Notes under the pieces: generated by a model
Database searches by the model: none
What the model saw: only the letters and a program-made list of their open reading frames with translations
What the model was told of the DNA's origin: nothing
Program-made: the position numbers and the translations under genes
Part shown: positions 1 to 24,606 of the stretch, piece after piece
How the letters are laid out: each line of letters starts with the position of its first letter
Position numbering within the stretch: the first letter of the stretch is position 1
NCBI GenBank assembly: GCA_042852035.1
Contig: BAAFHK010000003.1
Span: forward strand, 1 to 32,000
Source: Candidatus Saccharimonadota bacterium
Lineage (GTDB): Bacteria > Patescibacteriota > Gracilibacteria > BD1-5 > UBA2023
Direction of reading: 5' to 3'
Length of the DNA stretch: 32,000 bases

Positions 1-403
1 GGTATTTTACAGTTGCTGCATTGAGTCCACTCGTTGCATCTGAAGCTGAGAGAGTGATGGAGATATTCGCATTTCTCCAAGCAGCAGAAGTATTATTTGC
101 GGAGATAACTGGGCTTGTTTTATCGAGCTTATATTGGTTACTGTTCCATGTCTGACTGTTTCAGGCATTGTCTGTTGCACAGAGATAGAGAGTATGTTGT
201 CCTTCTGTTGAGAGAGTTATAACATTTCCGTTTGCAAAGACCGTTCCTCATCATACACAGTCTGCATTATCCCAACGGTATTTTACAGTTGCTGCATTGA
301 GTCCACTCGTTGCATCTGAAGCTGAGAGAGTGATGGAGATATTCGCATTTCTCCAAGCAGCAGAAGTATTATTTGCGGAGATAACTGGGCTTGTTTTATC
401 GAG
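1..403 (-). repeat. 276-bp-period direct repeat inside the surface-protein CDS, with perfect 127-nt copies at 1..127 and 277..403
   Basis: Positions 1..127 and 277..403 are identical base for base (ggtattttacagttgctgcattgag...gggcttgttttatcgag). The offset of 276 nt equals 92 codons. The remaining ~149 nt of each unit are clearly diverged, and a third, more diverged copy lies near 555..650. Confidence 0.9.
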
Positions 404-931
404 ACGATATTGACCATTCCAAGTGGATTGAATTCCAGCACCATCCTGTCCACAAAGATAGAGAGTATGATCTCCATCGGTAGTAACAGAACTCGAAAAA
501 CCATTCGAATAGTCAGTTCCTGCCCAACAGTTTGAATTATCGAGTCGATATCGTGATATAGCAATATTACTTCCTCAACCATCACTCGCAAAAGCCGTGA
601 AAGCAATATTGGCATTTCTCCAAGCAGCAGAATTATTATTGGCACTCACTGACGGAGCGGTAGAATCCCATCTCCAACATCGTACCTGCGCTCATAAATC
701 TGCATCTACCTTTGTCTGACCATCTGGGTACTGCACTCAAGAGCTTCCTCCATTTCAGGCATCAGAAGTTGTGGGACCAACAGCATCAGGAGAACCATCT
801 GGACTACAATGGACGGCCCCATTGGCTACCTTGTTGATATTGTATGATCCATACCAACCAGCATGCGTATCGCTCGTAGAAATAGCGAGAGAAAGTGAAA
901 GAAGAATTCACAGAAAAGTAATTTTTTTCAT
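1..931 (-). CDS. secreted surface protein with tandem ~92-aa beta-sandwich (Ig-like) repeats; C-terminus lies beyond the window start
   Basis: ATG at 931..929 on the minus strand. The code-25 translation starts MKKITFLGILLSLSLAISTSDTHA (Sec-type signal peptide) and stays open to position 1. It holds three copies of a unit ...KTSPVISANNTSAAWRNANISITLSASDATSGLNAATVKYRWDN...HTLYLCATDNAGNSQTW..YKLD. Track ORF 283..645 is an internal fragment that ends at a TAA in a non-coding frame. Confidence 0.7.
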
Positions 932-1095: not shown

Positions 1096-1596
1096 ATGAA
1101 TAATATTATTCGAATTTCTGAATCCCCATATCAGCTTGAGTTTAGCGTTGACCTCAATGTTTTTCCTCTCTCGATATGCCTACGTGCTGTTTACACGTTC
1201 CTCGATCGTGGATATTTCTTTTTTGAAAAAGATCAAACCAACAATAAACTCATAGTGAAAACAATCTCAAAAAATGACGCAAAGTGGTCCAGCGAAAAAC
1301 TCCTGTCTGACTTAAGCGATGAGCTGATTGCAACAACACTTCGTGCGAGCCTCGAAAAAGAAAATAAGACTATTCGCGATGCCATAGTTATGAAGGCTCT
1401 ATGGTGAATGGAAGACCACTCAAGAATTCCACAAGAAGAAAAGGAACAAAAAGAAGAATCACTTATCGACTTCACTCAGGATGTTGACCAACTTCTTAAA
1501 GAGATAGAAGAAATTACTGTTGAACCAAAAGAACCAGATATACGTATAAATGTTAACGGTGTCTTTCATGCAAAAAAAGCATTTAAAAATCGATAG
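1096..1596 (+). CDS. HxsD-like protein (copy 1)
   Basis: Track ORFs 1096..1407 and 1408..1596 share one frame and are joined by TGA (Gly) at 1405..1407, giving 166 aa. It is a clear paralog of 20933..21487: both share FLDRxYFFF, WSSE, SDELxATxLRxxLExxNKTIRxxIVMxAL and a C-terminal AKxxFxxR. The xLxDxxLR...IR pattern resembles the His-Xaa-Ser system protein HxsD (LLNDYxLRE family, from memory). Confidence 0.6.
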
Positions 1597-1756
1597 TTCA
1601 CTCTATCCTCCTTCTGCAATTGAAAAATGCATAGCACTCTTTGATGGCTATGATATTTCATTCCATGAAGAATCACAGACTCTTGAGATGCCTGACGATA
1701 ATCAACTCATTTTAGAGTTTTTTAATCATGCACTTCATCTTACCCTCGAAAAATAG
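1568..1756 (+). CDS. 62-aa conserved small protein of the Hxs-like module (copy 1)
   Basis: The ATG at 1568 lies inside the 3' end of the previous CDS (+1 frame, 29-nt overlap), and the stop is TAG 1754..1756. The product is MQKKHLKIDSSLYPPSAIEKCIALFDGYDISF...LILEFFNHALHLTLEK. A paralog at 20767..20961 has the same MQKK start, the same 29-nt overlap and a similar size. Confidence 0.5.
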   Translation: MQKKHLKIDSSLYPPSAIEKCIALFDGYDISFHEESQTLEMPDDNQLILEFFNHALHLTLEK

Positions 1757-1760
1757 CATC

Positions 1761-3221
1761 ATGACTCATCAAACCCTCACCCTCGATCTCGCAAAAAACC
1801 CACATAAGGATGTTGCATATTTTCGCTTTCGAAAGGAAGAGGATGGAAAATATCTCATGACAACTGATAATGGCCAGTTCACCATGCTCAATGGGGAAGA
1901 TTTTATAACACTACTCGAAACATGACGTGTCCCTCTCGAAGTGAAATATAAAGAATTATGTGAAAAGTGATTTATAAAAAGCGTCACGAACTATACTGAT
2001 GTTGAAACTCGCAATTATGCTCAAAGAAATAGCTTTCTGAATACTGGACCAGCTCTACATATGATTATTACTACCCTACGATGTAATCATAAGTGTAAGT
2101 ACTGTCATGCTGCCGTTGCTCCAATGACAGCAAAAGAGCTCGACATGAGCGTCGAAACGGCAAAGAAGGTCGTTGACACCATATTTTATACTACCAATCC
2201 TTCTATAACTATAGAATTCCAGTGAGGTGAATCACTCGTAAATTGGGATGTAGTAACTTTTGTCGTGGAATATTCCCAAAAAAAAGCAAAAATTCATAAT
2301 AAGCAGCTCTATCTCACTCTCGTGACAAACCTCTCCCTCATGACGGAGGAAAAATTACAATATCTAGTAAAAAATAGGGTTTGAGTCTGTACCTCTATGG
2401 ATGGCGATAAGGAAACTCATAACTGGCAGAGAACCTTTAAAGATGGAGACTCCTATGAGCTAGTAAACTATTGGATAAAACGAGCAAACGCTCTCTATAA
2501 GGAACACTGATCAACATATAGAGTTTGAGCTCTCCTTACGCTTACAAAGCCAGCGTTGGCTCATTATAAAAAAATTATTGACGCTTACGTCGATCTTTGA
2601 TTGTGATCTGTTTGACTCAGATGGCTTAATCCATACGGATTTGCAGCTGCTGAAAGGGAAAAATTTTATTTCGACACGGATGAATTTATCACATTTTTTC
2701 GCGATGCGATGGACTACATCATCGAAATTAATAAAAAATGATACCGCCTTCGAGAAATGCTTTCCTGAGTATACCTGACAAAAATACTCACCTGACAAGA
2801 TCCGAATTTTATGGATATCAGATCCCCGTCTTGACCAGCAATTGGCTGCCTCGCGTACAATTATGATGGATCCGTCTATGCTTCTGATGAATCTCGGATG
2901 CTTGCAAGAATGGGAATAAACGACTTCTGCCTGACACCTATGCTTGATTCCCCTGAAGAAACATACAAGGCCATCACCGAATCACCGGTCACAAATATCC
3001 TTATTCAGACAAGCACTCTAGATTGACTTCCTGGATATAACGATCACGTATATAAACCCTATATTGGAGCTGACACTCTTTTTTCTTTTACTCAATCGTG
3101 AAATCCATACTCTATTTTTTCAAAAGATGAAAGAAATGTGATGCAATTAGCACGACTCGATTATTTATTTGAAAAAATGTGAGATGAAACTATAATGGAA
3201 ATCTTTAGAAAATGGATTTAA
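1761..3221 (+). CDS. hxsB: HxsB-like radical SAM peptide maturase (copy 1)
   Basis: ATG 1761, TAA 3219..3221, 486 aa once many in-frame TGA are read as Gly. Motifs: LRCNHKCKYCHAA (Cx3Cx2C); IEFQ-G-GESLVNW with the first Gly encoded by TGA 2223..2225; VTNLSL; CTSMDGDKETHN; WLNPYGFA; AYNYDGSVYASDESRMLARMG. There is no complete Cx2Cx5Cx3C SPASM motif. It is highly similar to 19311..20759. The HxsB assignment is from memory of the family plus the HxsD-like and His-rich peptide neighbours. Confidence 0.75.
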
Positions 3222-3235
3222 TTACTCCCTACTAT

Positions 3236-3601
3236 ATGAAGAAAAAAATCCCACAACTCAAGAAAAAGCTTCATGGATTCATTACGAATGAAGACTGATC
3301 TATTCGACGTGAATCTATGGTGAAACTCTCCGTATGATGAGCTATGCTCCTCTGATGAGCTTCTGCTCTTCCTGATTCAGCAAATGCAGGACATTCAAAT
3401 GGGTATATTTCCTGCGCTCCAACTGGAAACACTCCAGCGATTAATGCAAGTATTGGTGTAAATACCTCCATAAATCTCAATGGTCACTTTAATGGAGTTT
3501 GATCATCCACACATGCCAATTACGGACACTGAAATTATAGTACCGCATGTTGGCAAAACATTCATGGATCTCACGGAAGCTGTGGATGATGATGTTGGTA
3601 A
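3236..3601 (+). CDS. precursor peptide A1 (HxsA-like; His/Asn/Gly/Ser-rich core with Cys-rich C-terminus)
   Basis: ATG 3236 is 14 nt after the hxsB-like stop, and the stop is TAA 3599..3601. 121 aa with 9 in-frame TGA by my count. Leader: MKKKIPQLKKKLHGFITNEDGSIRRESMVKLSVGGAMLLGGASALPDSANA. Core: GHSNGYISCAPTGNTPAINASIGVNTSINLNGHFNGVGSSTHANYGHGNYSTACWQNIHGSHGSCGGGCW. The leader and core motifs (VNTS, NGH[FY]N, GHGN) recur in 15444..15944. Confidence 0.6.
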
Positions 3602-3619: not shown

Positions 3620-4585
3620 ATGAATCGATACCTCGCTCTTTTTCTATTTTTCGTTTCTCCGATAATCCTTCTCTCTTCATGTACATGAATTGGATTTAAA
3701 AGTGGGAAAGTAAGTTGGAGTGATGCTCAGAATTCCAGTACTACCTATTCTTCGAAGATTGGGTGACTCTTCAAGAAAGCTCTTGATGATCCACATACAA
3801 AACAAATTGCCGAGAGAATGTATACCGATTACTCTGCTGGGATTATTACTGAGAGTTTTTTTTATACCGCGCTTACTTACCTCAACGATAAACCATCACT
3901 TCCTTCATTTCTCGAGAACTACAAAAAAAATAAGTGAGTATTTTGAGAAGAATCTTCTGATACAGCATCGGATTATATCGGTGGATACATTTTTGCTTAT
4001 GCTTGAGTAAAGACTAGTGAATGTACGGAATACACAAATGCCCTAAGTGGAACATTTGTCGGGAAAAGAATTCATGAAGGATGCATCGATTCAACCCTTT
4101 TGTATAATGTACTGGGCGAAAAAAATGAAAAAACAATTGATATATTTAAAAAATCTTGAGATTTAAAAATTAACGAAAGCCTCTTTCGTTCTATTGCAAA
4201 AGGAGAAACAAAAGACTGTTGAAGTTGCTCCGTTATTATTGAATGAGCTGACCGAGAGAAAACATTTGGCGAGATATCAAATCTTCAAAAATCAGATTTA
4301 AAAGGAAAAACTGTTAATTTTAGCTTAAAGAATTTTAATATTCTTGCACTTAAGAGCGAAATTAAGCCAAACATGTCTGATAGGGAGAAGTTTGATCTCA
4401 CATACGATAGCTTCTTACTCTATAATGCCATTTATAAATCGGATACCTCGACATGTAAGAAGCTTCTAAATGAAACACTCTCAAGTACTTGCATAAAATA
4501 TATCGAAAAGGATCGTACTCAAAAACAAGAATATACAAATTATATTGAACCATATATCATCTACAGCTACCTCTACGAACTCTAA
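3620..4585 (+). CDS. lipoprotein, function unknown
   Basis: ATG 3620. The N-terminus MNRYLALFLFFVSPIILLSSC carries a lipobox (L-S-S-C). The frame stays open, reading TGA as Gly, through to the TAA at 4583..4585 and includes track ORF 4373..4585. 321 aa. The C-terminal part contains a C-x11-C pair (CKKLLNETLSSTC). Confidence 0.6.
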
Positions 4586-5732
4586 GAAATGTCTCTACAT
4601 TCATATTCCCTTTTGTCCGACAGGATGTAAGTTCTGCCATTTCTATCTGGATGAGAAAAAATCATCCGAGAATTATATTGGTTATCTAGAGAAGGAATTT
4701 CTCTTGCGGTTTTGAGATGAAAGGGTTTTTATCGATACGATTCACATAGGTTGATGAACTCCAAATATGCTATCACAAAAAGAATTGGAGAGTCTTTTTG
4801 TTTTCATTCATAAAAGGTTTTATTGATGGAGGGAGTTTTCCATGGAGCTTCACACCGATCTCCTGACATTTCCACAGCTCGATAGCCTAAAAAATGGCTG
4901 AGTTACTCGAATCTCCTTCTGAATTCAAACATTTGATGCTGAAATACTCAAACTTCATGCACGCGTCTCTAAGAATTATGAAAAACTCTGATCCTATATC
5001 GAATATGCGAAAGAAATCGGATTTGAGAAGATAAATTTTGATCTTATTTATGACCTTATCGGGGATTCTCCTGATAAAATTCGGAAAAATATCGAATTCG
5101 TAAAACAATATCAACCAACGAGCGTGAACTATTACTGACTCAGGCTCCTTACAGACTTTCTTCGGGAAAATCATACTATGAATTACAAACGAAGACTTGC
5201 CTATTACCTTCTCATCCGAGAAGAGCTTACGAAAATCTGATACATCCAGAAAAACGATGCTATTTACCATAAACCTTGATTCGAAAATGGAAGAAACTTC
5301 TTGTATGAAGATTATGTCTACTCTAAGTCCCATACAATCTATGGTTTAGGTGTTTCAGCAACGAGTGATAATAACGAAAGATTCGCGAAGAATGTTATCT
5401 CACTTGAGAAATACAAGAACCTTCTCGACAATAATGAGTCAACACAGGATTTCCATTTTAGCCTAAGTGAGAAACCTTATCTCCTCTATAGACTTTATTA
5501 TTGGCTACTTATGTATCCTACGATGAGTTTTGCAGACTATGAAGCTGAATACTGAACTGGAACTATTCTAAAAATAAAAGAAGATATGTCGCGCCTTGAG
5601 GGTGAGGGTCTTGTAAAGATTGAAGATAGCTCTATACGATTAACCCAGAAATGACTCTTCTACTTCATGGGTCTTGAAGATATTCTTATGAAGGACTATA
5701 CTTACGAGCTCTCACTTCTAAGAAAATTATAA
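4545..5732 (+). CDS. HemN/HemW-like radical SAM enzyme (coproporphyrinogen-III-oxidase family; possible class C radical SAM methyltransferase)
   Basis: CLYIHIPFCPTGCKFCHFY from 4590; IHIG-G-G-TP with TGA TGA at 4752..4757; RISFGIQTFD; INFDLIYDLIGDS; stop TAA 5730..5732. Track ORF 5301..5555 is an internal piece. The start is uncertain: the only canonical in-frame start upstream of the cluster motif is TTG 4545, which overlaps the previous CDS by 41 nt. Confidence 0.75.
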
Positions 5733-7993: not shown

Positions 7994-8980
7994 ATGGATT
8001 TTGCCTATTTTCAAGTTGTACGCATCTGTAACCAAAAATGCATCTTTTGTGCTCAACCATCGAATGGAAGAATTGAGTCGCTCAAAAAAATACAAGAAAG
8101 GATTGACTGGTATAAGGACCAATGATATGAGTGAATTATCCTCAACGGCGGAGAACCAACCCTTCATAAAGAGATTGTTAACATCATTAAGTATACCGCA
8201 CAAAAGTGAATATATTCAAAAATGATATCGAATGGGATAAATTTTTCAAATGCTGAACTTGCCAAGGCTTGTGTTGATGCCTGACTCAAGCAGATTCACA
8301 TATCATTCCACAGCTATATACCAGAAGTTGAAAATAACCTCATGAGATGAGATGTTTATGAAAAGCAGCTCAAATGACTCCTCAACATGCTTCTCCATAA
8401 AAACAAGATCGATGTCTGGGTGAATATTGTTATGAACCAGTACACAATACGTCATTTAGATAAAACTGTACTTTTTTTTCTCAAACTCTGAGTGCGAAAT
8501 TTTGTTATTAATAATCTAGAAGTCACTTGAGTATATCCAGAATATTTAGAGAAATTACTGTTTCGCTTGAAAGAAGCTGAAGAGCCCCTCAAAAAGGCAC
8601 TCCATCTTATCCGAAAATATGGAAACATCGCGCGCGTCTCGCGTATCCCCATGTGCTATCTACGATGATTTGAAGACTATTCACGAGATATCGAGTATTA
8701 TATCCTCCATACAAAAAAATATATTCATTACCTGAATGATGATAAACACCCCAAGCAATCCGATTTCGTAAGCGATGAAGTAAGTTGGCAAAGTGGTGAA
8801 GGATCGCCTACTTGAATGAGACGTTCTCGAACCGAAAATTGTAGTCATTGTGATCTTCGTCATATGTGCTCCTGATATGATCTGCTTGATTTTTTCCCAG
8901 GTGAAGACCCTCTTATTCGACAGAAAGTTGATAATGAAGAAATGCAGACTATACTGAACAACATCTTATGAAAAAAATAG
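7994..8980 (+). CDS. radical SAM enzyme, possibly HxsC-like (tandem paralog 1)
   Basis: ATG 7994 is one nt after the previous stop. Motifs: VRICNQKCIFCAQPSNG; ILNGGEPTLH; ISFHSY; C-terminal ENCSHCDLRHMCSG. Stop TAG 8978..8980, 328 aa. The CxxxCxFCAQP context recalls the CxxxCxMCSQPP of HxsC (from memory, unverified). Confidence 0.7.
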
Positions 8981-9924
8981 CATACCTTCAACTTCATAGA
9001 ATCTGCGATCAAGAGTGCGTTTTTTGTGCCCAACCCTCGAATGGATCAGTACTCGATTTCAAAGCCATAAAGAAACAAATAGATGCTTTTGTTCAAGATG
9101 GTTACTCAAAGGTTATTTTTTCTTGAGGAGAACCAAGTCTCAATAAAGATTTTTTTGAAGTTATTGCGTACGGTAAAAGTCTCGGCATCGAAATGACCAT
9201 TCTCTCAAATGGTCATCGATTTTCGGAGTATGATTTCGCAAAAAAATCCGTCGAATCATGACTTCTACAGTACCATATATCCCTCCATTCACATATATCA
9301 GATATACACGACGCCTTAGTAAAAAAACCATGATCCCTGAAACGATGTTTTCAAGCGCTTCATCATCTACTATCACTCTCTGCGCACATCACAATAAATA
9401 TAACGATTAATGCTTATAATGTATCCTATTTTGATAGGCTTATTAAAGCTATCCTCAAAGAATTCCCTTCTATTCATGGATTTATTATCAATAACCTTGA
9501 AACCTCTCAGATTCCTCGAGAGCATTATAGTGTTATAGCAAAACTTTCGGAGATAAAAAAAACCATTCCGAATACCCTTCAAATTTTAGAAAATTCTGGT
9601 AAAAAATTCCGTATAGAAAGGGTTCCTTTCTGCTATATTCGATGATACGAGCATCATTCTACCGATCTTGAGTACGTCATCGACGGGGAAGAAAAATTTC
9701 TTCACTATCTCTGAGAGTCAAGAGCGTCTCACAAGGTAAAAAAAGAAAACTACGTTCATAACTCCAAATATGGCGAATCATGCTCAGCATGTGATCTAAA
9801 ATGACTCTGTGCTGGTCAGGAAGGTCTCAATATCCACTACTTTCCCGAAGAGCTTATTCCACAGACCGTAAGTGAAGCTGAGAAAAAACAAATTATTCAA
9901 AAATTCTATGAATGTTATTGTTAA
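8968..9924 (+). CDS. radical SAM enzyme, possibly HxsC-like (tandem paralog 2)
   Basis: ATG 8968 overlaps the previous CDS by 13 nt. Motifs: HRICDQECVFCAQPSNG; IFS-G-GEPSL (first Gly is TGA); ISLHSH; ERVPFCYIRGYE (compare RIPMCYLRGFE in the paralog); SCSACDLKGLCAG. Stop TAA 9922..9924, 318 aa. Confidence 0.7.
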
Positions 9925-11434
9925 CATCTCATGAGATACCTGAACGAATACACCTCCAAAAATTGCAAGACTTCTGGAGCTTTGAGAGACCTTCCCTATT
10001 CCGAAAAGTATTTATTTCCCTCTCTCTTATATTTCGGACATGGATGATATTCTTCATGCGTACGAAACACTCATTCATGAAGAGAAATATATCGTGCGTT
10101 CAGCGGATAAAACTGAAGATGGAGATCATAAAAGTTATGCCGGAGTATATCTAACAAAAACAAATAAGTATTCCAAGAAGAACCTGAGAAATGATATTCT
10201 TTCAGTAGCTCTGGGACTGTCAGAAGGAGGCTTTATACTTATCCAAGAATATATTGAGGCAGATTTTTCATGAATATACTTTGGAAACATTGGTTATGAG
10301 AGGAGTTGAATTGAGTATATTGCTGGATGAAATGAATTATTAACAAACTGAAGTGAAGTTGGATCAAGTATAATCTTCGATAAAAATGGGAAGCAAATCG
10401 TAAGTGAGGTTCAATATCAAGATTCGATACTTAAAAACTCTCTTCAAAAAGAGGACTTTTGTTCTTATGCAAATATTCGCATGAGTGAAAGAGAAGCGAT
10501 AAAAGATACCCTCTTCAATCTAAAAACCACTTCCTGAAATAATATAGATGTGGAATGGGCTATAAAAAATGGTCGAGTGTACATACTCCAAATTCGTTCA
10601 ATCACAAAACCTCTCGCTTTACCTCAGGATAGAGTAGACAAAAATAACCTCATAAAACCCTTTCGAGAAATTCTCGGGAAATGCGCTTTCATGCAGATAT
10701 TTTTTCGGGAACTATGATTTGAATCTTCGAGTATTATCTATGATATGGGATGAGGACTTCTCTATTGTGGAGTCTTTGGGAACAATGCCCAACAAGAACA
10801 ATTAGTCCAGATTATCAATTCAGACAAGCTCTACATCCTCTTAGATCGTGAAGATCCTCAATATGAGAAAATATTTCAAGAAAATGAGCGAAATGAACTC
10901 CGGTTCAAAGACCAGCGACTCGAAAGTTTGTTTGAAAAATATAGAAAAGATACTGGCATAGCAATCTTTCTCGCACGACTTCGAGTACATTCTGACCTGA
11001 GTCTCTTTTGTGACTTTAGGTATCCTTGACTTTTTTTTCTCAAACAGGAAAAAACTTTTTCAAGTTTACTCGAAGAAAAAAATAAAAGCGAATGAACTCT
11101 CTCTCTAGGACTAGGAGATGAGATTCCTTTTTCGTCATCACATAACCTTGAATCTCTCGAGGAGAGAGAATTGAGTGTAACAAAAAATATACAAGTCACA
11201 TGATTCGAGAATTCTGTATTCGTTGGATTTGATATACGCGACTATAAAGTTCATCCAAATATAAAACTTCTCCTTTTGGAACGATCAAGTCATCTTTCAC
11301 ATGGTGCGATACTCGCCCGAGAAATTGGTATACCCTGCATATATGGAGTAAAATGAATTACATCTCATCTCAAATTATGACAGAGACTGGTAATTGACAA
11401 AATTAATTATAATATTAAAATATGTAAATACTAA
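9908..11434 (+). CDS. PEP-utilising-enzyme-like phosphotransferase (PPDK_N ATP-grasp domain + swivel phosphohistidine domain, no TIM-barrel domain)
   Basis: ATG 9908 overlaps the previous CDS by 17 nt. The N-terminus is MNVIVNISGDTGTNTPPKIARLLELGETFPIPK (GGK..L..G.P-type). IVRSADKTEDGDHKSYAGVYLT and DVEWAIKNGRVYILQIRSIT match PEP synthase / PPDK / rifampin-phosphotransferase ATP-grasp motifs. The C-terminal LLERSSHLSHGAILAREIGIPCIYGV is the mobile His domain. I translated codon by codon from 10262 to TAA 11432..11434 and found no TAA or TAG. 508 aa. Confidence 0.7.
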
Positions 11435-11449
11435 CTTAGTAATTGGGGT

Positions 11450-13090
11450 ATGAATCAACTATCAAGAAAATACACTCTCAGTGAAGAGATTTGAGAGTTT
11501 GATACATGAAAGAACCTCAAATGAGCTCCTTCTACAAGATTTCAGGTAGCCGCCCTTCTCGATGAATCTCAACAACGAATGAATGGGCATGCAACTCAAG
11601 AGATTTTAGACATGACTCCTCCAACTGTGCTCATCGCTGAATATGCCAGAGCAAAGTGAGTACTCAAGATTCAACATAATGGAAGGATTATTGAAATTCC
11701 CGGAGGAGAAATATGAGGTGATGAAATAGTTTATTTGAGTCAAAAAGCAATAGAAGTATCACCATGAATAAATGAATGGCTTCGTGAAAATCCAGACTGT
11801 ATAAGAATTGAGTGAGAGTATCTCGTAGCGATTCACTTACCTGAAGGAGGAAAACGGTGAGGATTCTTTGATATTGTTATGAAAGAATTTTCTTCTACAG
11901 CAACCTCTCCACTGAAGCACGACATCGTTGAGCTCCATCTATGAGCCTGAGACTCAAAATTTTCCACCGTTATGGAGTGAGTCACTCCAAGTATGTTAGG
12001 AAAAATGCTGCGAAGAAAATTTAACATCGGAAATAATCCTAACTGGCAAAGCGAGCGAACACGAGAAAATCATGAGCGTCATTATGAGAAACTTCTTTGA
12101 ATCCCCGGAATAAAACCTCCTCAAATCTATCTCACTCTTTCAGGAAAATCAGCTAATACTGCGGTAATTCGTGATGTTTCAAAGAGTACCCCACCAAACA
12201 CCCTAACTGTATATCCTGGTTATTTTTTTCTGAATGAACCCGATTTCCCAGAGGGTACAAAAAATACGATTCATGATACCACTCAGTGATTTTTTGCATC
12301 TGTAGAATCTTGATATGCAGGAATCCAAAAGGAAGAGTATGATGCATGACTTTTAGAAGCGGTGAGAAAAATGATTAATCTCGCCTCAAGAAACACAGGA
12401 ACTTCATATTCTATATCTCTTGATGTCACTTCTGATATTCTGTCTTTCCAAAAAAGTGAACTCTGACAACTCATTCAAAAAGCCCTTAAACTGCAAAATC
12501 TTCGGGTTATTATTACGAGCAGTCTGACGAAATATAATCGAAATGAACCGAACTATCATTTTGGAATTATTGCTGATTTTTCATGAGAAGACCCCCTCTC
12601 TCTTGATGTCCTTGTAGAAACATCATATGGCTGACTCTCACCACTTTGAATCCTCCAATACCCTCGTCTTAAGAAAAATGAACTTGAGTGACTCAAATCC
12701 CAATCACAAAAATCCTGAGAGGCTTTTCTCTCATGATTCAAGCAGGCTGTATGAGATATATGAAATGGGATTATAGAGATTGAATCTTATACCCCCTATA
12801 GCTATATTCGATTCCCGTGACTCCCCGAAGATAAACGAAATAGACTCGTAAGTGAATTTCTCAAAGAGAGAGCTATACGCCCCTATGTAGGAAGTTCATT
12901 TTACCTCGAAGACTTCCGGATATGCGATGTCCCCGATGTGAATTGTTCACGTTTCTGAACAAGTAGTGATCGTAGCTTTCGTAATAATATTCGAGTGAGT
13001 TTCCCAACTTGAGATAAAGACGCGGCAAAAATGGGATTACTGGTGGGAGAAAAAATCAGAAATCTACTACAAGAAGCCACTTTTTCATAG
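11450..13090 (+). CDS. PLP-dependent-enzyme-like protein (fold type I, Cys/Met-metabolism-like motifs)
   Basis: ATG 11450, TAG 13088..13090, 546 aa, open only with TGA = Gly. Motifs: LTLSGKSANTAVI; RVIITSSLTKYNRNEPNYHFGII (S-x-T-K lysine motif); C-terminal NNIRVSFPTGDKD (compare RLSVGLED). The functional call is motif-level only. Confidence 0.5.
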
Positions 13091-13145
13091 TGTAGAAGAA
13101 CTTACTGTGTGATTGTAAATTTTAAAAAAATCGTATAATCACACC

Positions 13146-15392
13146 ATGCCAAATCTTATTATTCGGGAAGAGGAATTCTCTTGAGTTCCTTCGACGATTA
13201 GTTTCCCCCAACTCGTTCTAATACTCAGTTTTCTCAAGAAAAGATGAGAGAATCAGATTCGAATCTGCTGAGTCCATCCACTCAAACATCCAGAAGTAAA
13301 GAAGATTGTTGAAGTAATTCGGCGAGGAGGATTCGATTCAACCTTTGTTCTTTCATCCGAAGAAATAAAACAATGCATATTTCCTGAGAATATCACTCAG
13401 GCTGAGATTATTGTTCACGATATCAACTCCCTTCGTGCTGAGGATATAAAAATCATTAAAAATACGACCGAAAATATCCTTCTTGAATTCGAAGTTCCAG
13501 CAGAAAAAGATACCTATAAAAAAATTATTAATTTCTGTGAAAGTACAGAAATTCGAGATATTCGATACCGAGTACATCATCCTGAATTTTGAGAGAAAGA
13601 GATTTCTACACTTCCAGAAGAAAGGATAAACTCTCTATTTGAACATATTGTTACTTATAAAAATTCCTTCAACATTTCCCTGAATTGTGGAATCAGTAGA
13701 GACTTATTTTCTTCATCCCAAAAAGAAAAATTGTCTCAAATTTCATACTTTTGGAATGAAGGATGCTCTGGGTATGTTTGAAGGTATGATATCTATCCAA
13801 ATGGCGAAATAAAAAAATGTAAGCCCCTTAAAAAACTCTATGGGATTGATGGACTCAGACTCGAAAATTTTGATTCTGAAAATGATCTCTTCTTGGCTAT
13901 TGATATTGAGGAAAGTACTTCAGGTTGCATTACAGAAAAGCCCTATCCAACAAAAGACGAAATGCCGTTCGATAATTATCCATGATTTTATGAAGAAGAT
14001 AATCGAAAAAATCGTCACGTCCTACGAACGACCAAGGAACTTATAGAAAAAAAGAATACCGTCGTTCTTCCACCAGAACTTGTTCGAGGAAAGTCTGTTC
14101 TTGATCTTGGATCTTGTATATGAGCGATGTGACAGTGGGCACTCTTTTATGGGGCCAAGTCATATACCTGAGTAGAAATTCAAGAATCGTATGCAAAAAC
14201 ATCCAGAAAACTCCTCGCTCACCACGGTGACAAAGTAAGAATCATACAAAGCAGTCTCGAGAAATTTCTTTCAACGAATACAGAAAAATTTGATATCGTA
14301 CTTTGTCTCTGAGTGATTTATGTTGCGATTGACTACTATTCGATACTGAGAAAAATCTCTGAAATATGTAACGATTTTACGGTTATCGAGTCATTCTACC
14401 CAGATAACAGACTCCTCGACACTAATGTACCATGAGTACTCTTTGTAAATGACCATGGGATTAATCTTTCGACTCATAATGCTTCTCTCATGTGAAGATG
14501 AAGTCATATTAGTCCAAGTGGCCTTGATTTTCTCATGTCATGACTCTGAATGACTTCAGAGTGAGACATCCTACAACCAATGAAGATCTATCAGTGAATC
14601 GATTCCTATAGAATCCGATGAGTATGAAGGTACATGAAACGTTATCATCAAGGGAAACAAAAAAGTCTCCCTTCTCTTTCTGAGAAACTCGAACATGGGA
14701 TTATTGATAGAATCAAGCCTTGGGAAATGATGCAAAACTGACTCGAACCTAAAGAAGTAAGTGGACCATGGGAATTTGGCAATAAAATTGCGCATAATTT
14801 TTTCGATCACGCAAAGAATCATATCCCAAATTATGAAAAAACCATAGATCTCTGCCTACAGATTGTCCAAAAATACCTCCCAAATAGAAGTTCAAGAATT
14901 CTTGAATTTTGAAGCGCAATTTGATATACCCTTGAGAAATTTGAAAGGGCAGGATACAGAAATATTCTTTGAATCGAAAAGTCAGAGTCGATGTATAACC
15001 AAAGTACAATGAAAGAACATGTACGAGTACGAGATACCTTAATAGATGAAGATGGTCTATTTTCTGCTATTTTAGCGAATTGGACACTTCATTTTATCGA
15101 GGAACGTGAACCTATCATACAATCATTTTACAATCATCTTGAAGTAGGATGAATCCTTATAATTACAGATAAGGTGTCCTCGTCTGGACTCTCACACGAA
15201 CTGTATATGGATTTTAAACGATCTAATTGACTTTCAGAAGATGAGATTCAAACAAAAACAAAGTCTCTTAAAGGAGTGCTCTTCCCATTCGATATTACTT
15301 GGTATTTTACTACCCTGAAGAAAATAGGATTCTCAAGCATCGATATCATCACGGCAAGTCCATCTTTTGTAACATTTCTCATACAGAAATAG
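13146..15392 (+). CDS. three-domain fusion: radical-SAM/SPASM-like domain lacking Cx3Cx2C + CmoB-like methyltransferase domain + CmoA-like (carboxy-SAM synthase family) domain
   Basis: ATG 13146, TAG 15390..15392, 748 aa in one frame. The N-terminal ~290 aa has radical-SAM-like strands (IRICGVHPLKHPEV..) and a twitch/SPASM-like NEGCSGYVGRYDIYPNGEIKKC, but no CxxxCxxC. The middle domain reads KSVLDLGSCI-G-AM-G (TGA at 14121 and 14130), ...FDIVLCLGVIYVA, compare CmoB TILDVGCGSGYH...FDTVFSMGVLYH. The C-terminal domain reads PWEFGNKIAHNFFDHAKNHIPNYEK...RILEF-G-SAI-G-YTL...NWTLHFIEE...GGILIITDK...[22 protein letters not shown], compare E. coli CmoA [24 protein letters not shown]...VYDLGCSLGAATL...NFTLQFLEP...GGALVLSEK...[22 protein letters not shown]. 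Confidence 0.65.
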
Positions 15393-15398
15393 AAATTC

Positions 15399-15426
15399 TT
15401 GATATTCTCATTTTTTAAAATATAAT
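15399..15426 (+). promoter_or_regulatory. near-consensus sigma70-type promoter directly upstream of precursor A2
   Basis: TTGATA (15399..15404), a 16-nt spacer, then TATAAT (15421..15426). The ATG at 15444 lies 18 nt downstream of the -10 box. The element sits in the 51-nt gap after the fusion CDS. Confidence 0.4.
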
Positions 15427-15443
15427 CCCCTAAATATTTCTAT

Positions 15444-15944
15444 ATGGAAAAAAAAGGAATCATCCCAAAGTTCAAAAAGAAACTTACCGCCTTCCTTACT
15501 GAAGAAGCCGGAAGTATTCGTAGAGAAGATATCCTCACCATCGGTGCGGCTACTCTTCTCGTAGCATGAGGACTTTCAGATCAGGCAAATGCCTATCTCA
15601 CTCTTGGTGACTGTCATACTAACCATAATAATTTCGTAAGTACATCAGATGGTTATACTCATTCGAGTGGATGGGTCCATTCAAACACGACTCCTGCGCC
15701 TCTCTGTATGCATGAGAACTACACAACCCCATCTGCCTGAGGACATGGAAATGCAGTAGCGGTAAATACCTCAACTGCCTGATCTGATAATAAAATCGTA
15801 AACTGACACTATAATCAGATTCCAAGCGCTGGAGCATCACACGTAAATCGTTGACATGCGAACGTAAACCCAGTATACTATGTTGCTCACAATGACGGAT
15901 ACGTTTATCATAGCAGTCATGCGAATCATTCGGATGGTGGTTAA
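15444..15944 (+). CDS. precursor peptide A2 (HxsA-like His-Xaa-Ser-rich peptide)
   Basis: ATG 15444, TAA 15942..15944, 166 aa with 5 in-frame TGA. Leader: MEKKGIIPKFKKKLTAFLTEEAGSIRREDILTIGAATLLVAGGLSDQANA, homologous to the A1 leader. The core has 13 His, including GYTHSSGWVHSNT and YVYHSSHANHSDGG (His-Ser-Ser / His-Xaa-Ser), and shares the GGHGNAVAVNTST and NGHYN motifs with A1. Confidence 0.65.
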
Positions 15945-15964
15945 GATTTTTAAGCTTTTATAAT

Positions 15965-16978
15965 ATGAAAGGAAGAAATATACTCATATTAATGATTTGA
16001 GTGGCTATTTTTGGGGTTTTTTTGTTTATAAACAACGAGGACAATTGAGCCTCTTCGTTATTTTCCACGAGAAAAAATCCTTTCTTAAACTGATCTTGAA
16101 ATAACCTTACTTCTGATACTACGAGCAAGGAGATTTTAAAAAATATTTATACTGCTTCAAAGTCAAACTCTGGCAGTCAAGATTCTTTTAGTTGAAGTCT
16201 TACCCAAGTAGAAATTATCTGAACCTTGCCTCAAGGTATTACTTCAGATATGAGTGGAAGTTGATTTTTTATATCAGGATCTACCGTCTATGGAGATAGA
16301 AGTCGTGTACTCGTACTCGAAGATGGTCGTATAATCATAGGATATGAGCCTTGGCAAGCAGCAAAAAACTGGAAAGAAATACAGGCACCAGAGTGATGGT
16401 GACTCGATAAAGACATTATACCTCGAAGATTCTATTATTATACCACTTGAATGACTGAGGAAAATCTCAAGAAGGTAGCTGAGAACGTACGATTGCGGTA
16501 TAATGTAATGCACAACCTCATTCATAATACGAATCAGGATGACATCCTCGTAAAACAAGGAAAGGAGTGCCTTACGCAAATAGACAAATCTTTTGAGTAC
16601 CCAAATACTCCTCAAGATGGATTTTTTAAGATATGTAAGCCCCCTGTAACGAATGAGAAACGTTTTAGCTCGGAGAAAGACCCTGCATTTGTGAGATACG
16701 CTTTTTCACTACTTTATAAAGCATCGCAAGAAAATGATATAAAAATCTGTGATAAGATTGGCGATATCTCATTTGATGTAAAAACCTATTCGAGTCAATT
16801 TAATCTTTGACAATACTCTCTTATATGTCGATGAATCATCGACTGAGGAGGACAAAAGATTCTTGATTACGTATATTGATTCACGGTTATAAGTGGCCTT
16901 TCGAACCGATGTGAACTCTATGCTGACGAAGAGAAAATTCAGAAAATTTGTGAATCAATTACAGATACCCTGAGGTAA
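15965..16978 (+). CDS. membrane-anchored hypothetical protein
   Basis: ATG 15965 gives MKGRNILILMIGVAIFGVFLFI (N-terminal TM/signal anchor). The frame stays open with TGA = Gly through track ORF 16451..16810 to TAA 16976..16978. 337 aa. No family recognised. Confidence 0.5.
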
Positions 16979-17011
16979 AAATTACTCCCTTCGTTATTAA
17001 CACGCGTCAAA

Positions 17012-18109
17012 ATGTCCACTATTCAAAGTTTCCCATACACTATTTGATACAACGATAACAAGGTATTAAATATTTATATAGAAAAATATAAGCAAATTCT
17101 CCACCATCTCGCCCAGAAGCACCTCGATAAAGACATCGCAGCTACTCCTGATATTCTCCAATTTTTATCAATTGGAGATATAGCATCAAACCTTTTATTA
17201 CTCGGGAAGCCTGAACCATGAAATGGCGCTGAGTATGCGAAGAAATTCTTAGAGAAAGAATGGGCGGAGTTTAAAATCGGTGGACTCCAAAATCTTTCGT
17301 CTGTCAAGTGATCAAAGATCCCAGGAACAAATATCCTTCTTACCAACAACGATTATACCCCAGGAGGCGTCGCGAGGATTAATCATCCAAGCCAAAAGGA
17401 TGGAGCTCAACTTACGGGATTTTCTTCGATTGAAGAAAAAGAGTGGCTTAACCTCTATGCTCAGGTTTTTGAAAAAATCCGTGAGATACATCCATGATTT
17501 TATACCGAATTAACAAGCGTCCTACAAAAAGTTGTCCCAATAGGAATATCTCGTGACTGTCATAACTCTGGATCATTCTCGGACTGTATCGGACACATAT
17601 ATATGAGCTACCCGATAGGGAATATTGAACCAGTGATTGCCGTACTTGAGGCAGTTATCCACGAGTACAATCATAATAAACTTCATATTATTATGATGTC
17701 TGATCCATTGATTCTCAACAGTGGTGAAGAAATATACTACTCTCCGTATAGGCCCGATGCGAGACACCTATATGGTATTTATGCGTGACTTCATGCTCTA
17801 TCCGCCGTTTTATATGTTATCTTTACTTGAATTCAAGAAGGCACTCTCACTTCACCAAGTAAGGACCTAATTCTGAAGTCGCTCCTCTACTTCATGAAAG
17901 ATGAGGCGTCAGTTCGGGTCCTAGAAAAATATGGGAAATTCTCCCCTCTCGGACAAGAGCTCCTCAATGAAATGAAAGCGGTACATAAGCATACCCTGGG
18001 AATTATAAAAGAGCTCCGATACGGTCATGAACTCTTAGAAGCTGCTTCTCGAGAATGCAGAAATCACTTCCTTGAAGCACAAAAAAATAACAAAAAAATC
18101 CTATACTAA
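17012..18109 (+). CDS. HExxH-motif domain protein (family of peptide-modifying, aKG-HExxH-type hydroxylase-like proteins)
   Basis: ATG 17012, TAA 18107..18109, 365 aa. The track fragments at 17280, 17603 and 17894 are mostly pieces of this gene or shadows of it. The core reads PVIAVLEAVIHEYNHNKLHIIMMSDPLILNSGEEIYYSPYRPDARHLYGIYAGLHALSAV. That is the HExxH..L...(~20)..SP.R.D.R...G pattern of the HEXXH motif domain found beside radical SAM/SPASM maturases (from memory). Confidence 0.65.
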
Positions 18110-19310: not shown

Positions 19311-20759
19311 TTAAAACCAAGAGCGAAATACTTTTTCGTTCTCTGGATCTTGTAATTTTTCAAAAATATAATCAAGCATAATTATCTGCATCTTATTTTT
19401 CTCATCTTTTGAAAAGTTCGAGAATATGGTCCCATACTGGGTGAAATTATAGAGTATATCTACTCCTATATAAGGTTTATAAACATGGTCATTATAACCT
19501 GGAAGACCATCAATAACCGATGATTCAAGAGCAGCTCGAGTTACGGTGCTTTGAGCCATAGCCTTCATAGTTTGATCCCCTGTTGCAAGCATTGGCGTAA
19601 GTAAGAAGTCTTCGATACCCATCCTTCCAAGCATACGAGCCTCATCACCAGCATAGACCTTTCCATCATAATTATAGGCAACTCATCCAACTGCAACTCA
19701 TGATGGAGAACGAATATCCATGAAGTTCCCATCGGCATTAAAGAATATCTTTGAGAGGTACACACTCGTTATCATTTCTCTTAATTTATAGCCCGATTTA
19801 TTAATCTCAATGACATAATCAAGTCATTTCTGGAAAAAATCAAGAAATTCAGTTGGGGTAAACTCCATACGTTCTCGTTCGACGGTAGCAAATCCATACG
19901 GATTAAGCCATCGAAATCAGATACTTCGCAGCCCAAGACTCACATACGTATCGATTATTTCTTTATATTGCTTAATACTCGTTTTCGTCCAGGTAGCAAG
20001 AGCTCCTATACTAAATGATTCTGGTGCTCCTCTGTATTTTATTTCCTCATTTATTCGTTTTATCCAGTAAGACACTGTATCGAAACTATCTCATTCTTTC
20101 CAAACTCTTTGTGCATTATGAACAAGCTTATCTCCGTCAAGAGACGTACATATCTCCACCTTATGATCCAAAAGCCATTTGAGTTTTTCTTCACTCATAA
20201 GCGTCAGATTCGATACGATACTCAGGAAAAGCTGTTTCGAAAGAGACTCTGCCTTTTGCCTAGCGTATTCAGTAATAAATTGCACCACCTCCCAATTGAC
20301 GAGAGATTCTCATCACTGAAACTCGATGGTTATACTTGGAGAGGAGCTAAAAAAAATGGTATCTACAACATTCTTTGCTGTCTCAAGAGTCATATCTAGT
20401 CATTTCGCTGTCATAGGTGCAACTGCAGCGTGGCAATATTCGCATTTATGATTGCAACGCAATGTTGTAACAATCATATGAAGCGTAGGACCATAGTAGA
20501 GAAATTTATTCTTTTCGAGGTACAGAGCAGCTAACTTTTCTTCATAGTCAGGAGTCTTATAGAAAAGTTTTTCTGTAAGTTCATCTTTTTTAGGTCAAGT
20601 AAGCTCCCCGGAGATAAATTTTTCAAAATCTCAAGAGGTGAGAAAAGAATATTTTCCGATATCATTCGTGATAAGTATATCTCAAGATTTCATTTTTTTA
20701 TAGCGAAAAAATGCTATCTCTTGGGAAAGATTCTCAATAGTTTTCAAAGTAAGACTCAT
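19311..20759 (-). CDS. hxsB: HxsB-like radical SAM peptide maturase (copy 2)
   Basis: ATG 20759, stop TAA at 19311..19313, 482 aa. It contains track pieces 19311..19634 and 20091..20288. Motifs: LRCNHKCEYCHAAVAPMTAK; IEFQGGESLVNWEVV; CTSLDGDKLVHN; WLNPYGFA; AYNYDGKVYAGDEARMLGRMG; GLPGYNDHVYKPYIG. It is collinear with 1761..3221 throughout but diverged at synonymous sites. Confidence 0.8.
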
Positions 20760-20766
20760 ATATTCC

Positions 20767-20961
20767 TTAGATTAATTTTTCATTATAAAGTGCGACACAG
20801 TAATTTGAAAATTCATCAAACAGTCATTGTGGATCCTCATCCTGAATTGAAATTCCATCTTGAATAGATTGAATATCAAAAGACTCAAATTCAGAGATTG
20901 CTTCTTCCAGAAGGGCTTGAGGATAGAAATTTTTATCGAGATTGAAATTTTTCTTTTGCAT
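20767..20961 (-). CDS. 64-aa conserved small protein of the Hxs-like module (copy 2)
   Basis: ATG 20961 lies inside the end of the HxsD-like CDS (29-nt overlap, other frame), and the stop TAA is at 20767..20769. The product MQKKNFNLDKNFYPQALLEEAISEFESFDIQS...GLFDEFSNYCVALYNEKLI is a paralog of 1568..1756. Confidence 0.5.
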
Positions 20962-21487
20962 TCTTAACTTTATTAGGATCTAACTGAGGGGTTTTCTTTG
21001 TTTGAGTTCCACTCATATCGACTTCAATTTCCTTCAAAATCCGATCTATCTCACCCTGATCAATCTTAAGCTCTGGATCATTTTCAATTTCTTTTAAGAT
21101 TTCATCAATATCCCTATCAAAGTCAATCTGTGGATTTGAATTCGAGATTTGATTTGGAACAAAATTTTGACTATCAACATACGAACCAAGAGCTCGCATA
21201 ACTATAGTTTCTCGAATCGTTTTATTATCTCTTTCAAGTTTATCACGAAGAAGGGTTGCAAGAAGTTCATCACTGTATTCAAGAGCAAACGCCTCACTAC
21301 TCCAACGTTGATTTTCTTTTGGATGAATTTGAACTAGGGTATTCTCCCCATCTCTCTTAAAAAAGAAATAGCATCGATCAAGAAACATATACGCCGCCTT
21401 CATGACGACTGCCTCTGAAAAGATTCCACCATCAATAAGAAGCTCTAGACGATTATTTTCCTGATTTTTTGAAAGAAAAGCAAACAT
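20933..21487 (-). CDS. HxsD-like protein (copy 2)
   Basis: This is an intact 184-aa ORF in the track with no internal TGA. MFAFLSKNQENNRLELLIDGGIFSEAVVMKAAYMFLDRCYFFF...WSSEAFALEYSDELLATLLRDKLERDNKTIRETIVMRAL. It is a paralog of 1096..1596. Confidence 0.65.
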   Translation of the reverse strand: MFAFLSKNQENNRLELLIDGGIFSEAVVMKAAYMFLDRCYFFFKRDGENTLVQIHPKENQRWSSEAFALEYSDELLATLLRDKLERDNKTIRETIVMRALGSYVDSQNFVPNQISNSNPQIDFDRDIDEILKEIENDPELKIDQGEIDRILKEIEVDMSGTQTKKTPQLDPNKVKNAKEKFQSR

Positions 21488-22529: not shown

Positions 22530-22677
22530 GCGATAATGGTACCCTCATAAAGAAGAAAATCAATCTGAATTAGGAGAGAATATATTGACTTTGTATAATA
22601 TTCATTCACCGAAATATTTAGAAAAGGAAATGCAAGGTTTCTCTCGACAGAAGTTACTTTTTTACCATAATGAAAGT

Positions 22678-23700: not shown

Positions 23701-23783
23701 AACTTGCAAAAGCAATGAAGTTGTATACCATAATCGCAAAGATTTCCCATTTCATTTTTGGCACCCTATAATTTCTTCTCATT

Positions 23784-24305
23784 ATGACAAAATTATTCTG
23801 AGTAAATAAAGTAAAAGCTCAGGCACCTTCTGAAACTCACCAAATCAGACATGTGAGCCATGATGATAATAATCATGGGAATCATCACCATCATCATGAA
23901 GATCATGATGATGTAGAAGAAAAGTATGAGGAAATCGATGAAATACACGATCATCATGATGAGGAACATAATGTAGACCTCGGCCAAATAGCTGTAGATG
24001 TTTTAGATCTTACAGATGAAATTATTATTGTAGCTCCAATTGCTTGAGTTGACCCAAGCGATATCGATATTGGTCTTTCACGAAATATTCTCACTCTTTC
24101 ATGAGAACGAAAAACTCCAAGCATCTATATGGACGCTAAAAGGATGCTCGTCGAAGAGTGTTTCTTTTGAGCATTTTCTCGATCAATAATTCTCCCAGAA
24201 AATTTGGCTTTTAATAAAATTCGTGCTACCGTAGAAGAAAATGTAATTATGGTACATGTGCCAAAACTTTCATTTTTTTCAAAGACTATTAAAGTTGAAA
24301 AATAG
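23784..24305 (+). CDS. Hsp20/alpha-crystallin small heat-shock protein with His-rich N-terminal region
   Basis: It shares the frame of track ORF 23853..24047. Upstream ATG at 23784, stop TAG 24303..24305. The alpha-crystallin core reads IAVDVLDLTDEIIIVAPIAGVDPSDIDIGLSRNILTLSGERK...EECFFGAFSRSIILPENLAFNKIRATVEENVIMVHVPK. The N-terminus reads HDDNNHGNHHHHHEDHDD...DHHDEEH. The start is uncertain. Confidence 0.75.
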
Positions 24306-24337
24306 AGTGAAAATACCGTCCCTTTTTTGTAGGAAAT

Positions 24338-24604: not shown

Positions 24605-24606
24605 TT

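Follow-up and report, generated by a model that had tools for sequence, protein, structure and literature searches.

The window analyzed here (the first 32,000 nucleotides (nt) of contig BAAFHK010000003.1, forward strand) carries a short gene, designated A1, located directly after a gene for the radical S-adenosylmethionine (SAM) maturase HxsB. Our results suggest that A1 is a genuine gene in which UGA is read as glycine, and that it encodes a divergent substrate of the HxsA type which would be modified, exported and active at the cell surface. To this explanation as a whole we assign a probability of about 65%. The existence of the gene, its genetic code, the homology of its leader, the conserved synteny and the H-x-[S/N] rule followed by its histidines were all demonstrated. 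The initial annotation, made from the letters of the sequence, had read A1 as a peptide that the neighbouring HxsB-like enzyme modifies, and this view gained support from the HxsB score (446.8 bits) and from the synteny kept in 39 of 46 loci. The features of A1 and of the module preceding it are as follows:

3236..3601, + strand: A1, gene for a predicted HxsA-type prepeptide of 121 amino acids (aa) plus stop codon under genetic code 25; assigned from translation, TGA positions and homology
3236..3388, + strand: A1 leader and signal-like region, aa 1-51; assigned from the HxsA3 profile, a leader hidden Markov model (HMM) and AlphaFold
3389..3598, + strand: A1 core, aa 52-121 (70 aa), with H-x-[S/N] motifs and no predicted structure
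3563..3598, + strand: HGS in two tandem units (aa 110-115), then the tail CGGGCW (aa 116-121); shared as HGSHGSCGGG(C/H)W with the orthologue from the metagenome contig L048
3169..3196, + strand: promoter-like site TTGAAA-16-TATAAT (11/12 match), within the hxsB 3' end, ending 39 nt before the A1 ATG
1096..1596, + strand: HxsD-like, copy 1; TIGR03976 47 bits (cutoff 50), position conserved in all related loci
1568..1756, + strand: HxsD-related small protein, copy 1; NF038315 28.3 bits (cutoff 41), found between HxsD and HxsB in most related loci
1761..3221, + strand: HxsB copy 1 (HxsB1), radical-SAM maturase with CX3CX2C; TIGR03978 446.8 bits (cutoff 370)

The A1 frame runs from the ATG at 3236 to the TAA at 3599-3601 and comprises 121 codons. 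The HxsB1 stop codon occupies 3219-3221, leaving the gap of 14 nt that had been annotated. An upstream ATG at 3212 is a possible alternative start; the family alignment favors 3236. In-frame TGA triplets are present at codons 21, 34, 35, 40, 41, 89, 99, 118 and 119, and code 11 breaks the frame with nine stops. The description of A1 as hidden from the standard-code track of open reading frames (ORFs) was correct in this respect, yet the gene is already annotated by NCBI under code 25, as the identical 'hypothetical protein HHAS10_09680 [Candidatus Altimarinota bacterium]'.

The genetic code of the window is 25, with UGA meaning Gly. This is so because, in the alignments of four paralogue pairs of the window, TGA in one paralogue faced Gly 16 times and Trp 0 times, as in the radical-SAM 'FQGGES' motif. 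Genes in the window end in TAA and TAG only, and the ORFs of at least 100 aa sum to 4,038 aa under code 11 vs 21,602 aa when UGA is read through. Code 25 agrees with 'Candidatus Altimarinota' (Gracilibacteria, Patescibacteria group), the name under which NCBI lists the identical A1 protein. A search of the window for tRNA genes found none, and hence no UGA-reading tRNA-Gly. TGA proved to be the commonest Gly codon in the window genes (277 of 669; 9 of 20 in A1). The nine UGA Gly codons pointed out at the outset, including two of the three terminal Gly (G118 and G119), were therefore counted correctly, but they are unremarkable and merely reflect genome-wide codon usage.

Since code 25 leaves long frames on both strands, A1 might be a chance open frame in a genome with two stop codons, or one of the antisense ORFs that overlap it (141 and 95 aa) might be the real gene. 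Homology on the sense strand decided this question. A1 matched A2, the second HxsA-type prepeptide of the window (BLASTP, E 2e-14), 39 ORFs located downstream of HxsB (E down to 3e-13) and the L048 orthologue (E 8e-17); altogether, more than 40 sequences were homologous to the sense frame, with E values down to 1e-17, and the antisense frames had no independent homologues. Both variants were excluded on this ground, and we regard them as almost certainly wrong. Judged by its homologues, A1 is a genuine gene. Promoter-like sites matching at least 10 of 12 positions were located within 80 nt upstream of 11 of the 42 family genes vs 3.9% of random positions (p 4e-7), an enrichment that is suggestive only, the control positions being mostly coding sequence. 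A terminator was looked for after A1 and none was found.

The 46 loci used for comparison were fetched from GTDB genomes with HxsB as the anchor, and all of them were translated with code 25. Forty-four carried the names Gracilibacteria, Peribacteria or Patescibacteria group or were listed as unclassified; the other two came from Elusimicrobia. An ORF homologous to A1 and A2 followed HxsB in 39 of the 46 loci and started approximately 10-180 nt downstream (mostly less than 100 nt); members of the clade include L042 (complete genome CP042461), L023 and L016. Among the remaining seven loci, two were cut inside HxsB, two had another gene after HxsB, one gave a weak match and the two Elusimicrobia loci carried an HxsA4-type gene. 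A precursor right after HxsB was also present in most metagenome loci, including those of standard-code bacteria. The initial annotation had made its reading dependent on a homologous small ORF beside HxsB in related genomes, and in these 39 loci it was indeed present. Comparison of the sequences showed that the precursor gene type is fixed directly downstream of the HxsD, HxsD-related and HxsB genes across Gracilibacteria.

The same gene order bears on another explanation, in which A1, having a signal-peptide-like N-terminus, would be an ordinary Sec-secreted and unmodified His-rich protein with a meaningless HxsB adjacency. We find it very unlikely, because the adjacency is kept in these 39 of 46 loci of a phylum-level group as well as in standard-code bacteria, and because the conserved basic n-region of 27-31 aa, the very stretch held in common with the curated HxsA3 and HxsA4 models, far exceeds the needs of export.

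A search of 5.8 billion proteins with the leader profile gave 133 matches, nearly all of them 'hypothetical proteins' of 30-97 aa and none with an Hxs name. Many of the matches were fragments ending where TGA would fall. These 30-97-aa database members (P0002-P0121) fit gene calling under code 11 halted at the first TGA, and protein-database surveys undercount the family because code-11 callers stop at this point. The metagenome scan anchored on the C-terminus of HxsB1 revealed only distant standard-code HxsB loci (24-39% identity) and no further A1-type locus. In the literature, we found no paper naming HxsA3, HxsA4 or HxsC4, or joining Gracilibacteria, radical SAM and ribosomally synthesized and post-translationally modified peptides (RiPPs).

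The leader of A1 joins a basic n-region (27 aa, net charge +5) to a hydrophobic segment, with A-N-A occupying positions -3 to -1. The NF038309 (HxsA3) profile matched it at positions 2-48 with 23.8 bits (E 2.8e-5), and so did the leader HMM overall (E 7e-19). The invariant leader residues are P6, F15, E19, G21 and A51, and the n-region of the family, approximately 27-31 aa long, has the consensus KKKxFPKxKKKLKGFLTDESGKITKKDAL. The best 12-mer of the hydrophobic segment reached a Kyte-Doolittle value of 1.66 in A1, the family median being 2.1. At the signal-peptidase-like site, Ala occupied position -1 in 40 of 41 leaders and V/A/T/G/S occupied position -3 in all 41. By sequence rules, the basic n-region, the hydrophobic h-region and the small residues that stand at -3 and -1 give A1 the features of a signal peptide of the Sec type, and its cleavage is predicted. 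AlphaFold placed helices only at aa 10-16 and 25-34, both within the leader.

Two other routes of leader processing were considered and rejected. Export via Tat, suggested by the RR of 'GSIRRE', was discarded because only A1 and A2 carry it, the other 39 leaders having K-I-[ST]-K-[KE]. The near-invariant leader segment K-G-F-[LI]-x-x-E-x-G (window positions 3263-3298 in A1) resembles a type IV prepilin site, with G at -1, F at +1 and E at +5. It is probably a maturase-recognition motif instead of a prepilin site, since position -1 is variable (G/N/S/A) and the segment is not followed by a hydrophobic stretch; in addition, the gene for an A24 (prepilin peptidase) domain after HxsB2, which had also hinted at such processing, is absent from the other loci.

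The core that follows the SANA site has 70 aa, as had been annotated together with its four Cys (60, 105, 116 and 120); it is free of K, R, D and E and ends in HGSHGSCGGGCW. Seven His had been ascribed to it, but we counted six (53, 84, 93, 98, 110 and 113), the seventh being located in the leader (LHGF). All six stand in H-x-[S/N] (HSN, HFN, HAN, HGN, HGS and HGS; permutation p<=0.0005). In the family, 206 of the 218 core His outside the tandem array (94%) had Ser or Asn at +2, the background of S+N being 25%. For this reason H-x-[S/N] is the real repeated unit, and not the GH/HG units described earlier.

HGS units number two in A1 and 3-11 in most relatives, and they are missing from L027, L032 and A2. 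The relatives end in RW, QW, SY, GGWC, CSGMC, CSW and other tails, and their middle region is variable and nearly uncharged, with a motif like ASGIVNGHYS. The A1 core is the shortest complete one in the family (69-70 aa). Going by its motifs, A1 is a repeat-poor, Asn-shifted variant, with H-x-N in four of six motifs and two HGS units. In the AlphaFold model of A1 (mean predicted local distance difference test score, pLDDT, 49; predicted template modelling score, pTM, 0.13; shallow alignment), the core had no secondary structure. This is consistent with a peptide substrate, though no proof of it, and agrees with the earlier remark that A1 has no fold-forming core. A word-seeded search for relatives of the core and an exhaustive one, the latter of 1.84 billion representative proteins, returned only A1 itself, as would be expected if these databases contain the orthologue in truncated form.

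Four further features of the window enter the comparison with the known Hxs families:

15444..15944, + strand: A2, second predicted HxsA-type prepeptide, 166 aa; NF038309 41.7 bits, E 7.6e-11
3620..4585, + strand: lipoprotein (LLSSC lipobox), without a function assigned by family, immediately after A1; no family match
7994-8980 and 8968-9924, + strand: two HxsC-like radical-SAM genes; TIGR03977 83 and 104 bits (cutoff 268)
19311..21487, - strand: second HxsD, HxsD-related and HxsB module; HxsB 447.2 and HxsD 65.2 bits, both above cutoff

The canonical HxsA model TIGR03979 matched neither A1 nor A2 even at E<=10, and canonical HxsA membership of A1 was rejected. The initial annotation had proposed this model for comparison, and the homology turned out to lie elsewhere, i.e., in the HxsA3/HxsA4 leader, below threshold. 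HxsA3 (NF038309, cutoff 65) gave 23.8 bits for A1, 41.7 for A2, the best HxsA3 match in the window, and 23-53 for ten typical Gracilibacteria relatives. HxsA4 (NF038313, cutoff 55) matched neither A1 nor A2 and gave the ten Gracilibacteria relatives 18-49 bits. The standard-code relatives L050, L045 and L053 passed the HxsA4 cutoff, with scores of 64, 87 and 92 bits among the three. Full-length standard-code relatives carry the A1-type leader, (H-[GAS]-S)n arrays and the family tails, and are encoded after HxsB in many metagenome loci. By homology, A1 belongs to the HxsA3/A4-type superfamily; by curated thresholds, it belongs to no modelled family.

Common to A1 and to HxsA3 and HxsA4 are the leader P-x-[IL]-K-K-x-[IL]-x-x-F-[LI]-x-x-E-x-G-x-I-x-K, a hydrophobic stretch with Ala at its end, motifs of the type H-x-S and the place directly after HxsB; the tails of HxsA3/HxsA4 include QW, SY and GGWC. 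A1 differs from HxsA3 and HxsA4 in matching over the leader only, in having two tandem H-x-S units instead of a long array and H-x-N in four of six motifs, in its longer non-repeat middle region and in the use of UGA for Gly. The likeness to the Gracilibacteria clade goes further and covers the leader, the signal-peptidase-like site, the dispersed H-x-[S/N], the motif [IL]-[VNT]-N-G-H-[YF] (NLNGHFNG in A1), the HxsD, HxsD-related and HxsB context, and an HxsB without auxiliary-cluster cysteines. A2 resembles A1 most strongly over the first 50 residues. It has 11 of its 13 His in H-x-[S/N], nine of them in H-x-N, and no HGS array, and its own promoter-like site (11/12) ends approximately 17 nt upstream of the ATG.

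The one member of this group of systems that has been studied by experiment is HXS of E. coli, an antiphage system with HxsA as the effector (Li et al. 2026, PMC13128918). HxsB, HxsC and HxsD were all required there for HxsA to be processed at its N-terminus as well as for a mass shift of +8 Da on SHRSS, and the matured HxsA was exported and blocked phage DNA entry (PMC13128918). E. coli HxsA has five tandem H-x-S repeats, the covalent change being located in the last S-H-x-S-x unit, and the Ser residues of the modified motif were essential (PMC13128918). In the survey of the same study, 99.7% of HxsA proteins were found in Pseudomonadota (PMC13128918). Like A1, HxsA of E. coli HXS and of the Aeromonas plasmid locus L047 is encoded with HxsD and radical-SAM HxsB, the canonical loci also having HxsC. 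Canonical HxsA combines a signal peptide with tandem H-x-S, a combination that A1 would resemble with its predicted signal peptide. The gene order is D-B-C-A in the canonical loci (Aeromonas L047, E. coli) and D-Drel-B-A at A1. Canonical HxsA has 190-215 aa and a signal peptide that is short, its repeats are basic (HRS-type) and its C-terminus holds a peptidoglycan-binding domain, whereas A1 has 121 aa, an uncharged core and a long conserved leader, and ends six residues after the repeats. Its tandem H-x-S consists of two HGS units, accompanied by four dispersed H-x-N.

The low number of repeats raised the possibility that A1 is a decaying, non-functional duplicate of an (HGS)n substrate from which most repeats were lost. 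Consistent with such decay, A1 has two HGS units vs 3-11 in most relatives and no complete core of the family is shorter, HxsB1 lacks a close orthologue (identity of <=58% in every locus) while the second copy, HxsB2, has close ones, and the A1 locus is rearranged relative to the relatives. Against it, the frame is unbroken, leader and signal-peptidase site have been retained, all six His keep H-x-[S/N] and a strong promoter-like site lies upstream.

The contig L048 supplied a further argument against decay. Its protein P0082 was the best match to A1's own leader among the 133 profile matches, and the code-25 frame of P0082 runs to 124 aa and ends in HGSHGSCGGGHW. The resulting orthologue is 42% identical to A1 (BLASTP) and scored 24.8 bits on the HxsA3 model. 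It shares with A1 the tail HGSHGSCGGG(C/H)W and is flanked by the HxsB 3' end before it and by a lipoprotein gene after it, the latter with a weak similarity to the lipoprotein of the window (E 0.002); no lipoprotein gene was found after the precursor in the other related loci. A1 and its orthologue thus depart from most of the clade, with its 3-11 HGS, by two units followed by CGGG(C/H)W and a lipoprotein gene. That an independent metagenome orthologue keeps the same repeat reduction, tail and lipoprotein neighbour argues for a maintained subtype and against a one-off decay, which we consider improbable. Of the four Cys of A1, the orthologue has C116 alone; the Cys residues are therefore no conserved feature, and they were rejected as conserved modification sites. 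A separate co-lineage of HxsB1 and A1 found no support from HxsB either: the L048 HxsB fragment is 70% identical to HxsB of L004 and 64% to HxsB1.

If A1 is the substrate that we propose, the long conserved part of its basic leader would serve in the cytoplasm as the recognition element for the HxsB/HxsD machinery; among the inferred steps, we hold this one with the most confidence. Radical-SAM chemistry would then modify one or more of the H-x-S/N sites, still in the cytoplasm. By analogy, the terminal S-H-G-S-C of A1 may parallel the S-H-R-S-S that carries +8 Da in E. coli HxsA. The peptide may also be a target of the many other tailoring enzymes in the cluster. Sec export and cleavage by signal peptidase would come next, directed by the hydrophobic segment together with A-N-A, and the 70-aa peptide would be released at the cell surface. 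It might act there, possibly as an envelope barrier to phage like E. coli HXS, an analogy that is a weak guide to its function.

Several observations weigh against this reading of A1. Every HxsA model has a curated cutoff well above the score of A1 (23.8 vs 65), and the A1 core has no database relatives. The signal peptide of A1 is deduced from sequence rules. A1 has only two canonical HGS, with H-x-N in four of six motifs, and in E. coli the Ser residues are essential. No Pfam or NCBIfam peptidoglycan-binding domain was found in A1. As its core has neither this domain nor K/R, the electrostatic DNA-binding model from E. coli is not transferable. An HxsC partner beside HxsB is missing: the HxsC-like genes are sub-threshold and located 4.4-6.3 kb downstream of A1. 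Finally, none of the 43 Gracilibacteria-type HxsB has the four C-terminal auxiliary-cluster (SPASM-type) cysteines, although they still score above the HxsB cutoff.

The last point came from the alignment of 45 HxsB sequences to Aeromonas HxsB, of which 43 were of the Gracilibacteria type, HxsB1 and HxsB2 included (loci L001-L043, L046). All 45 keep CX3CX2C. The Aeromonas residues C422, C425, C431 and C455 are replaced by Y, H/S, I/L and K/T/R, respectively, in the 43 Gracilibacteria-type proteins, and the canonical LPACAYCAYLPYCG of Aeromonas aligns to LPGYNDHVYKPYIG. Canonical HxsB keeps these cysteines, unlike the copies of the window, and the corresponding region has 4-8 Cys in Elusimicrobia HxsB and in 18 of 18 standard-code metagenome copies. 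Mutating two auxiliary-cluster cysteines of E. coli HxsB lowered processing and abolished defence (PMC13128918). With the cysteines lost, the chemistry, or the division of work with the HxsC-like enzymes, may differ in the Gracilibacteria clade. The HxsC-like proteins are devoid of the canonical N-terminal domain and have the C-terminal CxxC..C motif as in canonical HxsC; their orthologues are encoded downstream of precursors in relatives.

The gene content downstream of A1 leads to the explanation that competes with ours over the final role of the peptide. It holds that A1 is the precursor of a diffusible RiPP, bacteriocin-like or a metal-chelating His-rich peptide, and not an envelope effector, with the numerous tailoring enzymes assembling a small molecule or peptide that would be heavily modified and secreted. 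A1 is followed by the genes for the lipoprotein, a HemN-like radical-SAM protein, two radical-SAM proteins (one PapB-like) and the two HxsC-like proteins, and further downstream by those for a phosphoenolpyruvate (PEP)-utilising-type enzyme, a pseudo-radical-SAM (rSAM)/double methyltransferase protein, A2 and an aKG-HExxH peptide beta-hydroxylase (62 bits, cutoff 40). A cluster with approximately seven radical-SAM genes, the PEP-utilising-type enzyme, the double methyltransferase and the beta-hydroxylase would suit a RiPP, as would a core that is short, uncharged, unstructured and hypervariable between genomes, the promoter-like sites that A1 and A2 each possess and the lack of a peptidoglycan-binding domain in A1. 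However, the immediate neighbourhood of A1 revealed no gene for a bacteriocin-type transporter or leader peptidase, the A1 leader terminates in a standard signal-peptidase site, and the sole experimentally studied Hxs system gives an envelope-located protein effector. We therefore regard a diffusible product as unlikely, while its difference from the HxsA-type surface substrate proposed here concerns the final role only.

The tailoring genes of the window are unusual for an Hxs locus (9908-18109, + strand): a PEP-utilising, pyruvate phosphate dikinase (PPDK)-like gene, a gene for the 748-aa fusion of pseudo-rSAM and double methyltransferase, and the hydroxylase gene. Orthologues of the hydroxylase and the methyltransferase are encoded downstream of precursors in L008-L012. 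The HemN-like gene (4497-5732, + strand) cannot begin at its first in-frame ATG (4767), since CX3CX2C lies upstream of that codon; its start must be a codon other than ATG, perhaps the TTG near 4545, and the gene must overlap the lipoprotein gene's end.

The second module lies on the minus strand, convergent, with HxsB2 at 19311-20759, and has no precursor gene directly downstream. The precursor position is taken by a gene whose product, a membrane protein of 399 aa, contains an A24 (prepilin peptidase) domain (18106-19305, - strand). It may simply be the general prepilin peptidase, because the window also encodes a type IV pilin-like protein (30681-31913, + strand) with the classic prepilin motif KHG|FTLFE. 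The layout of L001-L011 recurs in the second module together with its flank (unk25, HSP20, g27, g28), and for this reason the locus seems rearranged or duplicated. The flank includes a gene for an HSP20-family protein (23784-24305, + strand) with a His-rich N-terminus (HGNHHHHHEDHDD...); together with three flanking genes of unassigned function (22630-25287), it keeps synteny with the Hxs module in L001-L011 and L040, the closest relatives. At the left edge of the window (1-931, - strand) lies the 5' end of a secreted-protein gene, which continues beyond that edge. It contains 136-nt direct repeats (1-136 and 277-412, 276 nt apart, 98% identical) that encode repeated domains.

Hxs has been known as a broad antiphage defence since 2026 only. 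In this context, the value of the finding lies less in A1 alone than in the exposure of a substrate family hidden by recoding, together with an HxsB without auxiliary-cluster cysteines. After nearly all sampled HxsB genes of Gracilibacteria comes a gene for a putative substrate, and the family is almost absent from protein databases. This Gracilibacteria-wide Hxs branch is captured by no curated model and described in no paper that we found; surveys would have missed it because UGA recoding truncates its genes in protein databases. A more specific claim is offered tentatively and with doubt, namely that Gracilibacteria possess a distinct, undescribed Hxs branch, in which an HxsB devoid of auxiliary Fe-S clusters would act on Sec-exported, uncharged H-x-S/N substrates and A1 and A2 would form a His-x-Asn subtype.

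For the chemistry, the clade amounts to a set of natural experiments: its HxsB lacks auxiliary clusters, its substrates carry neither basic residues nor a peptidoglycan anchor, and A1 and A2 have Asn for Ser at +2. A short substrate such as A1, with its six sites and two canonical units, would be a convenient minimal one for reconstituting the modification. If A1 and A2 are modified, the chemistry would target His, or tolerate Asn at +2, without requiring Ser. If the more specific claim holds, the Hxs branch could be an envelope antiphage barrier or have another surface function in these bacteria with reduced genomes.

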